NCBI GenBank assembly: GCA_963783575.1
Contig: CAWAOD010000014.1
Coordinates: 320,001-384,000 of the forward strand
Reading direction: 5' to 3'
Length of the DNA stretch: 64,000 bases
Origin: an uncultured Spirochaetota bacterium
GTDB lineage: Bacteria; Spirochaetota; Brevinematia; Brevinematales; JAOACQ01
Part shown: positions 21,001 through 24,000 of the stretch, piece by piece
Layout of the letters: each line of letters begins with the position of its first letter
Numbering within the stretch: position 1 is the stretch's first letter
Made by a program: the position numbers

Positions 21001-24000
21001 TACAAACTTGAAAACCGGTGAAATGATTGTTAGTCCGGAATATGCGAGAATGCTCGGTTTTGATTCGGAAACATTTTTGGAAAACTATGAAACCTGGGTT
21101 GAACGTATGCATGATGACGACAGGGAAAGAGTTGAAACATATTATCAATCCTGTCTGAATGGAGAAATTTTAACATTTCATATTGAGTTTCGGCAAAAAA
21201 CGAAATCAGGACAGTGGCGGTGGATATTATCCCAGGGAAACATAGTCGAGTGGGATAACGAGGGAAGCCCTCTCCGTCTTATGGGAACTCATACGGACAT
21301 TTCTGATCGGAAAAAGATGGAAGAAGAGTTGATACAGGCCAGAATTGCTCTTGAAGAGGCAAACAGGGTTTTGGAGAAGCTTTCTAATACCGATGCGCTT
21401 ACAGGTATAGCAAATCGCCGTTATTTTTCAGAAGTTTTTGAAAAAGAATGGTACCGTGCAAAAAGGAATAGCAAACCGATCTCCTTAATAATGATGGATA
21501 TTGATTTTTTCAAGCTTTATAATGATTATTATGGCCATTTAAAGGGTGATGACTGTCTAAAAAGTGTTGCAATGGCCATCAATCACTCAGTAAGGCGAAC
21601 TACCGATATAACCGCCAGGTACGGTGGTGAGGAATTTGTTACCCTGTTACCTGATACAAACCTGGAAGGTGCAAAAATAGTAGCGGAAAATATACATGAA
21701 AATATTGAAAGACTACAGATTGAACATCTGAAGTCAACTGTAAACCGTTTTGTTTCCGTTAGTCTTGGTATTGCGACCATTTTGCCGATTGACAATCAGG
21801 AATACACCGAACTAATTGAAAAAGCTGACAAGGCTCTTTATAAGGCCAAAGAAATGGGAAGAAACAGGTTTTATGTTTATAAAAAAGATTGATATTATTT
21901 TTCGGAGGATAAAATGTTCCTGGGTTTCACTGGACCTAATGCGGCAGGAAAAGGCGAAGCAATAAAATATCTTATCGAAAATAAAAAGTTTATTTCTTTT
22001 TCATTATCGGATATTATAAGGGAAGAAGCAAGGAACAGAGGATTTGAACCAATAAGGAATAATCTGATACTTATAGGAAATGAGTTAAGAGAAGAAAAAG
22101 GCCCGTCAATCCTTGCCGTACGAACAATTGAAAAGATAAAAAATATGCCTCAGGCAATTGTTGACAGCATAAGAAATACTTATGAGATTGAGGAGCTCAG
22201 GAATAATTTAAAAGACTTCATTTTAATCGGTATAACAGCCGATGCCCCTACCCGTTTTGAAAGGTCAAAAATACGAGGCAGGATCGGGGATGGGACTACG
22301 CTTGAAGAATTTATTAAACAGGAAGAAAGAGAGAACAGTTCCAATGAAAAATCACAACAGTTAAACAGGTGTTTTGAAGAAGCAGATTATAAAATTAATA
22401 ATTCCGGAGCTAAAGACGAACTTTATTTAAAAATAGATAAAATACTTGACGAATTGGGGTATAAGGCTTATACAAGGCCAACCTGGGACGAATATTTCAC
22501 AAAAATGACATATCTTATTGCCGAACGTTCCACCTGTCTAAGGCACCATGTCGGCGCAGTAATTGTTAAAAATAATCACATCATAAGCTCAGGCTACAAC
22601 GGATCTCCATCAGGCGTTAAAGACTGTATAGAGCTTGGCTGCATAAGGGACAAACTTGGAATAATTTCCGGAACCCGCCATGAAGTATGCCGGGCGGTTC
22701 ATGCAGAACAGAATGCCATAATACAGGCGGCTTTACATGGAACAAGCCCGGAAGGCGGCACAATATACTGCACACATTCTCCATGTATTATCTGCGCTAA
22801 AATGATAGTAAATGCAAAAATCAAACGATTTGTTACCTGCGGATATTATCCGGATAAAAGTTATGAAGATCTTTTTAAAGAAGCCGGTGTACAATTCTCG
22901 GTCATGGATAAACCGGTTTTAACAATCAGTTTCCTTAATTGAAAAAGAACAAAATATTATAAACTTCTTTCTATATTAATTAGAATATACATCGCCAGAT
23001 ATGAAGTTAGCAATCCGATGTTAATATGTTTTTTATTATAAGTGGAAATAACAGCCTTAGCAACGTTAGATACATTATCAAGATAATTATCAAGGGTCTT
23101 CATACCGGTCATATCTCTTTTAATAGCTGCCTGCCAGCTTAAATTCCTGCCGACATCTTTGCGGGTCATAATTTCCTGAATGATTTTCTCATCATCTGCG
23201 GGTTTGATCGACCATTTCTTCAAATAAAAAGCAAGGTATTCCTTTTCATCATTAAATCCATCCTCTTGAAGCAGCGCTTTTTTAAAATAGGTGACTTTTT
23301 CATTTAACTTTATATCGGAATTAGCCCTGTTCGAGGTTCTGTCAGAACTTTGTTTTTGATGCGCATTAAACTGAACCGGTGATTTTTTTACCTGGAATAA
23401 TACATCCATAAGGTCTTTTCCCGGAGTTTTCTGTTGCTTATCATTGCTGGCCACATCGGCATTATTTGCATAAATTCCTTTATTATCGCGTTTCCCTCCG
23501 GATATACTTATTATATCATGTCTTATATTTGAAGTCCTGCCATAGTTTTTATGCTGATCATCCAGTATTTTCATTAAATACAGCCTGGCACCCATTTTTT
23601 TATTAAAAAAAGGAAACAGCTTAGACAAAAATGTGAAAAACCTTGTAAGAAAGTCATTTTTATTCCTCATCTGCCGGATTATATCAAGCCGTGTTACCCC
23701 GATGATACTGCTTAGTGGAATTTTGTTATCATCCCTGTCAAAAAATGAGGATGTTTTTTCATTATTTATACGAATCAAATATCTGAGAATTTCATTATTA
23801 GTCTCAAAAATGTTATCGATAACAAATAGTTCATTATAAAAATTTTGTATGCATTGAGATAAATAACGGGCAAAATCATCATCCGAATCAAGGGCATATA
23901 TAATATTCTGAGAATCGTCGCTCCAATTATTTTTTTCAAGCACATATGAAAGCCTCTGAATAAACGCAGTTTCCTTGATACCATATTGTTTATCCGTTAT

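Follow-up and report, generated by a model that had tools for sequence, protein, structure and literature searches.

The gene at positions 21914..22942 (+) of the window analysed here (64,000 nucleotides; positions 320,001 to 384,000 of contig CAWAOD010000014.1 from an uncultured Brevinematales bacterium) encodes a 342-residue fusion of a P-loop kinase with a dCMP deaminase. We propose that it is a housekeeping bifunctional enzyme, probably one whose UPF0200/arCOG01045-type kinase domain acts on CMP and dCMP, allowing the loss of cytidylate kinase (Cmk) and feeding dCMP to the deaminase. What tracks the loss of Cmk is the kinase domain, whether fused or standing alone. The fold and the kinase–deaminase architecture are known; the new element is the probable assignment of an orphan kinase family as CMP kinases.

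The fusion gene and its surroundings

The initial annotation described a fusion of 342 residues, and both the ORF and its two Pfam domains were recovered: AAA_17 at residues 6-117 and dCMP_cyt_deam_1 (PF00383) at residues 190-308. The N-terminal NMP-kinase domain, of UPF0200/SSO1041 type and the proposed (d)CMP kinase, comprises residues 1-183 (21914..22462, +), with its Walker A motif from G7 to K13. The C-terminal Zn-dependent dCMP deaminase domain, of ComEB/DCTD type, is encoded by 22463..22942 (+, stop codon included) and carries the motifs H263-A-E265, P290-C291-x-x-C294 and the allosteric G227-Y-N-G230 (for the meaning of a GYNG-type motif we follow a section of 10.1101/2021.03.31.437871). 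AlphaFold2 models have a mean pLDDT of 91.6 for the fusion and 93.5 for the kinase domain alone.

The deaminase half superimposes on the Streptococcus mutans dCMP deaminase 2hvw with a target-normalised TM-score of 0.92. PF00383 scores 87.6 bits on it (cut-off 25) and TIGR02571 114-117 bits, below the cut-off of 219. The HAE, PCxxC and GYNG motifs are invariant in 112 full-length homologs. The domain is thus similar to the solved ComEB/DCTD enzymes (S. mutans 2hvw, T4 1vq2, human 2w4l), with Zn and allosteric motifs intact; unlike the fusion, these proteins lack a kinase domain. A phage origin was considered and rejected: the best 80 viral loci listed, found with search patterns drawn from the deaminase domain, all have their matches confined to the deaminase part (residue 159 onward).

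A 21-nt spacer (21893..21913, +) precedes the fusion ORF and contains GGAGG 6 nt before the ATG, presumably the ribosome-binding site. The upstream gene encodes a PAS-GGDEF diguanylate cyclase (19559..21892, +), which is a local neighbour only and was not seen beside the fusion gene in seven relatives. Downstream, a 982-residue ORF without a Pfam match (22957..25905, −) converges on the fusion gene and shows no sign of being a member of the same system. Promoter and terminator scans at the locus gave counts at chance level. The GC content around the gene (0.37-0.38) is that of the genome, which speaks against a foreign island. In the relatives the neighbours, as read from the sequence, are housekeeping genes; thyX follows the fusion gene in five of seven, as the initial annotation had it, and does not do so in the source genome. 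The latter has a second, short thyX (L182:1621-2133, on G000:C13) besides the long form; the long thyX and an NrdJ-like gene lie in frameshifted pieces, and the secY-adk-rpsM region is present twice, with one secY frameshifted. These frameshifts and the doubled region (C16:182499-183835, C11:395925-398194, C6:7062 and C6:24053) are probably assembly errors.

Loss of cmk

The source genome (G000, 89.85% complete) gave no match over cut-off for PF02224, TIGR02173 or PF13189, and a tblastn search of the whole assembly with 24 Cmk proteins of the order turned up no remnant: its best match (E 0.002) falls within an ABC-ATPase-like ORF. Relatives that have Cmk carry cmk behind aroF-tyrA, and two of them (G031, G033) show the arrangement aroF-tyrA-cmk-ispH. 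Here, only 12 nt separate tyrA from ispH, midway along a 743-kb contig; cmk is likewise absent after tyrA in the four fusion-bearing relatives checked. The gene has been cleanly deleted from between tyrA and ispH, and the loss is real: profiles, tblastn and synteny agree on the absence first reported for this genome. Incomplete bins had been named as a possible source of the gap; this was rejected on the strength of synteny, tblastn and the control genes. Tmk was detected in 151/151 and RecA in 149/151 Elusimicrobiota genomes, so the gaps in Cmk and kinase reported below are not due to assembly loss.

Neither an archaeal-type nor another Cmk-like substitute emerged, the best weak matches being shikimate kinase and CoaE. 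Adk, Gmk, Tmk, CoaE and NrdD are all present over cut-off, together with PyrH, ThyX and one dUTPase-family gene. Three alternative roles for the domain were rejected on these grounds: dTMP kinase (Tmk is present in the source genome and in all 151 Elusimicrobiota genomes), UMP kinase (PyrH in 5/5 genomes) and dephospho-CoA kinase (a separate CoaE over cut-off in the source genome, and TIGR00152 not among the matches of the fusion gene). In one of the outside spirochaetes discussed below (G349), a CoaE-like gene was read from the sequence before polA. According to a part of PMC3603445, loss of cmk is survivable in Escherichia coli and Salmonella at a cost to growth, and cmk is reported essential in Bacillus subtilis and Streptococcus pneumoniae; a substitute is therefore expected but not strictly required.

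The kinase domain

The initial annotation likened the domain to SSO1041 and adenylate kinases; among solved proteins, SSO1041 is indeed nearest to the N-terminal half. UPF0200/SSO1041 is the best match by profile (E 1e-32) and by fold (Z 22.8, rmsd 1.8, 167 aligned), followed in the fold search by phosphomevalonate kinase (Z 16.2), yeast uridylate kinase (15.3) and Cmk proteins (12.3-13.8); this ranking places the domain in the NMP-kinase family and does not pick a substrate. The match to the UPF0200/SSO1041 'adenylate kinase-related protein' (PDB 3lw7, 3h0k) spans the whole domain, but the domain described here is bacterial, fused to a deaminase and only 22-23% identical. Only one relative has a ligand in its structure: 3lw7, whose title reads 'bound to AMP'. 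PRK08356 (NCBIfam) scores 53 bits against an equivalog cut-off of 189, and partly from this match we tentatively take SSO1041 and the present domain to belong to arCOG01045. According to PMC6650551 (in part), arCOG01045 is found in nearly all archaea with its function left open, and its members TK1334 and TK2192 have no dephospho-CoA kinase activity.

Cmk (PF02224), archaeal Cmk (TIGR02173) and eukaryotic UMP-CMP kinase (TIGR01359) share the NMP-kinase fold with the domain (Z 12.3-15.3) and, as we propose, would share its reaction. The Cmk types are not orthologous to the fusion: neither PF02224 nor TIGR02173 matches the fusion gene, and TIGR01359 reaches 15-17 bits against a cut-off of 207.6.

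K13, R36, R59, R87, E91, R114, R121 and R123 are invariant in 112/112 full-length fusions, which argues for a working kinase. The Walker A lysine and phosphate-binding arginines expected of an active NMP kinase (K13, R36, R87, R114, R121, R123) are among them. Human UMP-CMP kinase binds the NMP phosphate with Arg39 and Arg96 and recognises the 4-amino group of cytosine through Asn100 (PMC1950558, in part); R36, R87 and E91 have the same spacing. In an HMM alignment E91 falls on the matching Gln of AK1, a register that hangs on a one-residue gap and is shifted by one in MAFFT. A Glu at this position may favour bases with an amino group (C or A) over U or T; adenine would suit it no less than cytosine. 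Cmk-less (45) and Cmk-positive (15) carriers share the same key residues.

The kinase family is large (1,741 clusters at 50% identity, E up to 1e-30). Among its best 150 homologs (representatives), 125 are of stand-alone size; the 25 long ones comprise fusions to dCMP deaminase (13, in either order), Adk (2), dCTP deaminase (1), dUTPase (1), a LOG-like domain (1) and a weak methyltransferase-like match (1), as well as four tandem kinases and two with no partner. Individual examples of fusions to adenylate kinase, dUTPase, dCTP deaminase or a LOG-like domain, or of tandem double domains, are P0185, P0241, P0195, P0237, P0242, P0121, P0122, P0124 and P0153. At two loci (L104:4977-7842, L108:4974-7868) a gene for a dCMP deaminase fused to a long ThyX precedes the kinase gene and a dUTPase-like gene, and a Tmk-like gene lies close by. 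In a tree built from 76 kinase domains after removal of 21 repeat rows, the fusions of the order form one clade with Goldbacteria-labelled fusions (100/99). Cmk is missing from four of the Goldbacteria-labelled genomes with a fusion, and gene transfer between the two groups is likely.

Distribution within the Spirochaetota

Among 35 Brevinematales genomes the full-length fusion (70-75% identical) is found in eight, Cmk over cut-off in 25, both in none and neither in two, of which one is 57% complete (G025) and the other 86% complete and also without the tyrA that stands beside cmk (G028). The mutual exclusion originally noted therefore holds, with 0/35 genomes having both, and the earlier count of eight Cmk-less against 18 Cmk-positive genomes was reproduced exactly as the 25 high-quality genomes plus the source genome. 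The reservation that the pattern is one clade is also justified within the order: all eight fusion genomes belong to one and the same family, in which two of the three genomes of genus g5 have kept Cmk; this amounts to a single event.

In a sample of 301 genomes of the phylum, dominated by few families, 291 have Cmk and seven the kinase (E up to 1e-10); the kinase is found in 7/10 Cmk-less versus 0/291 Cmk-positive genomes. These seven are four fusion carriers and three genomes from three other families (G339, G349, G365; 96-99% complete), each Cmk-less with a stand-alone relative of the kinase. Neither gene was detected in G345, G402 (of which 88 kb were left out) and G621. The large phylum searches scored 9-11 candidates per genome; five of the six outside Cmk-less genomes (all except G402) were re-searched with all candidates scored. 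G339 and G349 share the kinase neighbourhood, and their gain of the kinase is probably one event. Their only PF00383 match is RibD-like and no dCMP deaminase was seen, so the kinase persists without one. These stand-alone kinases form a divergent subfamily that lacks R36 and R87, which speaks against the proposed role.

Distribution in other phyla

Since the kinase occurs fused, adjacent or alone outside the order, searches were made with a profile of the kinase domain (A1, 24 domains). Among 151 genomes of the Elusimicrobiota (the phylum of G054; completeness at least 90%), 64 have only the kinase, 77 only Cmk, nine both and one neither; two weak kinase matches (G107, G122; E about 1e-9) are left out of the kinase count, and a Cmk match inside an ORF of more than 1,500 residues (G125) was scored absent in the tree work. 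Three single-contig genomes (G105, G114, G123) are kinase only. In many Cmk-less members the kinase stands alone, far from any deaminase. Cmk-like domains inside giant ORFs of 1,600-12,700 residues were observed at L363 (G125:C20) and in G214, G082, G626, G633, G640, G656, G660, G664, G668 and G680.

The Elusimicrobiota pattern is mostly that of two large clades. On a quick RecA tree of 148 genomes (23/136 branches well supported, kin not independent) we count 8 changes of state for the kinase and 11 for Cmk. When the two traits are modelled together, dependence gives the better fit (LR 24.1, 4 df, nominal p 7.5e-5), although several of the rates reach their bounds and the fit does not show which event came first. 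The kinase is present throughout 12 of the 13 maximal Cmk-less clades, a clade count inflated by poor resolution; only three independent pairs have good branch support, and a sign test gave no significant result. The near-complementarity in this phylum and the three further Cmk-less spirochaete families reduce the single-clade weakness.

The outside comparison in the initial annotation counted Cmk in 'fusion carriers' against carriers of a deaminase alone. That set mixed true fusions with adjacent two-gene pairs; in a recount over 50 of 72 outside loci, Cmk occurs in 7/11 bacterial true-fusion genomes, 2/16 split-pair genomes and 11/16 bacterial deaminase-only genomes. PF02224 is over cut-off in 5/6 archaeal-labelled carriers, in an ORF of 180-190 residues. 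Among 114 genomes of KSB1 (the phylum of G047), 108 have Cmk, 13 the kinase and ten both, including all eight clear fusions; Cmk is missing in 3/13 carriers (all split-form) versus 3/101 non-carriers. These figures include one unpublished genome (G333), which is Cmk-positive and kinase-negative, as are 98 rows in all, and does not by itself carry any conclusion. In the phylum of G036, Cmk is missing in 18/61 genomes. The first five other Cmk-less genomes listed gave three with the fusion and two with neither gene, and the first five Cmk-positive ones gave 0/5 with the kinase (one weak CoaE-like match); the kinase count leaves out the remaining 50 of the 61.

Carriers in KSB1 and among archaea thus mostly keep Cmk, and Cmk-positive carriers have the key residues of Cmk-less ones, which indicates that the kinase permits loss of Cmk and does not force it. 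That 10/13 KSB1 carriers and 5/6 archaeal-labelled ones keep Cmk points either to a use of the kinase beyond that of Cmk or to tolerated redundancy. Genomes with neither gene are G345 (99% complete), G621 (97%), G402, G093, G639, G645 and three from KSB1; G345, G621, G639, G645 and G093 have either another Cmk substitute or none.

Substrate of the kinase domain

The kinase might act on dCMP only, turning dCDP into dCMP for the deaminase, with ribo-CMP weakly recycled by Adk or excreted, so that only the deoxy half of the need for Cmk is removed. This would account for the repeated fusion or adjacency of the kinase to genes for dCMP deaminase, ThyX, dUTPase and ribonucleotide reductase and for its long coexistence with Cmk in KSB1 and archaea, and human AK1 does phosphorylate CMP, at 0.32% efficiency (PMC1950558, in part). 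We nevertheless consider it unlikely, given the stand-alone kinases remote from deaminases in Cmk-less Elusimicrobiota, the two spirochaetes (G339, G349) in which no dCMP deaminase was seen and the stand-alone size of 125 of the best 150 homologs.

If the substrate were not a cytidine compound but another NMP, a nucleoside or a cofactor intermediate, the Cmk pattern would reduce to shared ancestry and a tolerated loss of cmk. The AMP-bound title of 3lw7, the second rank of phosphomevalonate kinase among the fold matches and the near-universality of arCOG01045 in archaea (PMC6650551, in part) are compatible with such a substrate; well-supported independent contrasts are few, and the anti-correlation was profiled over four families only (Cmk, Tmk, PyrH, RecA). 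The 'neither' class is nonetheless almost empty in two phyla (1/151 and 3/301) and the kinase is found in none of the 291 Cmk-positive spirochaetes. Adk, Tmk, Gmk, PyrH and CoaE are already present, and TK1334 and TK2192 lack dephospho-CoA kinase activity in the part of PMC6650551 cited above. We judge this explanation quite improbable.

Relationship to anti-phage dCTP deaminases

The architecture of a P-loop kinase joined to a deaminase has been published for DcdV/AvcD (10.1101/2021.03.31.437871) and for an anti-phage dCTP deaminase (10.1101/2021.04.26.441389); in the sections of both preprints that we cite, the kinase domain is required and no substrate is given for it. AvcD/DcdV, the family NF041025 and the PADLOC model dCTPase have kinase and Zn deaminase in the same order, and are homologous to the fusion over both domains. 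NF041025 is the best NCBIfam match of the fusion (149 bits). The cut-off of NF041025 is 400 bits, and Tal et al. (10.1101/2021.04.26.441389, in part) used a floor of 350 residues; the fusion stays below both, and far below the first. The allosteric motif is GCND in DcdV, whereas the fusion family keeps GYNG in 120/120 homologs. A place in a defence island and a 5′ inhibitory RNA would be expected of an AvcD/DcdV gene. In the relatives the fusion has housekeeping neighbours, none of the six neighbouring or nearby ORFs scanned here matched a defence family, and a spacer of 21 nt could hardly hold a DifV-like RNA gene immediately upstream, although no RNA family search was made.

An AvcD-type kinase–deaminase of 615 residues does occur in the order, in all four genomes of family f5 (G016-G019, all with Cmk). 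It has a Cys in place of the Walker A lysine that the fusion retains. Its gene (L025 and L029, 946-2796, −) scores 297 of the 400 bits for NF041025 and has the same neighbours in the two loci read; it seems to be fixed in the family, unlike a mobile defence gene.

That the fusion itself is an AvcD/DcdV-like, dCTP-depleting anti-phage enzyme, its kinase domain a nucleotide-sensing regulator of the deaminase, is suggested by the domain order, the NF041025 match and the PADLOC dCTPase match over residues 2-328, but is very unlikely with that score and length, an intact GYNG motif and Walker A lysine, housekeeping surroundings, and presence in eight related genomes, next to thyX in five.

Proposed function

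The reading we prefer is that of a bifunctional (d)CMP kinase–dCMP deaminase. The N-terminal domain would be an ATP-dependent NMP kinase for CMP and dCMP, possibly for other NMPs too. In the forward direction it would take over from Cmk the recycling of CMP to CDP; run backwards (dCDP + ADP to dCMP + ATP), it would supply the fused deaminase, which would convert dCMP to dUMP for ThyX under dCTP/dTTP control. We infer that the ancestor of the clade gained the fusion gene and that cmk then became dispensable. The kinase domain as a candidate replacement for CMP kinase, as first put forward, is supported by the pattern of Cmk loss, with two amendments: the replacing unit is the kinase domain, usually stand-alone, rather than the fusion, and the relation is permissive, not exclusive.

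We found no proposal of a CMP-kinase role for this family in the open-access literature, in agreement with the original statement, which left the published AvcD/DcdV architecture unmentioned. Grochowski et al. reportedly studied NMP kinases of Methanocaldococcus jannaschii and may have assayed an archaeal member, which could bear on both substrate and novelty. PMC11257099 and PMC12697855 (both in part) contain nothing on the CMP-kinase question.

More tentatively, we suggest as a possibility that UPF0200/SSO1041-type kinases are a further, so far overlooked class of prokaryotic (d)CMP kinase, one that has repeatedly taken the place of Cmk in several phyla of bacteria, and that the same reverse chemistry might explain why anti-phage AvcD/dCTP deaminases need their P-loop domain and how a fold of the dCMP-deaminase type drains dCTP; AvcD would then be a housekeeping CMP kinase–dCMP deaminase minus the dTTP brake.

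The proposal offers a specific function for a large orphan kinase family whose archaeal members are not dephospho-CoA kinases (PMC6650551, in part). If true, it would fill an apparent pathway hole in 65 of the 151 Elusimicrobiota genomes examined and in some sections of other phyla; genes of the family are there now labelled 'AAA family ATPase' or 'dephospho-CoA kinase', and it may provide a role for the required kinase domain of anti-phage dCTP deaminases.
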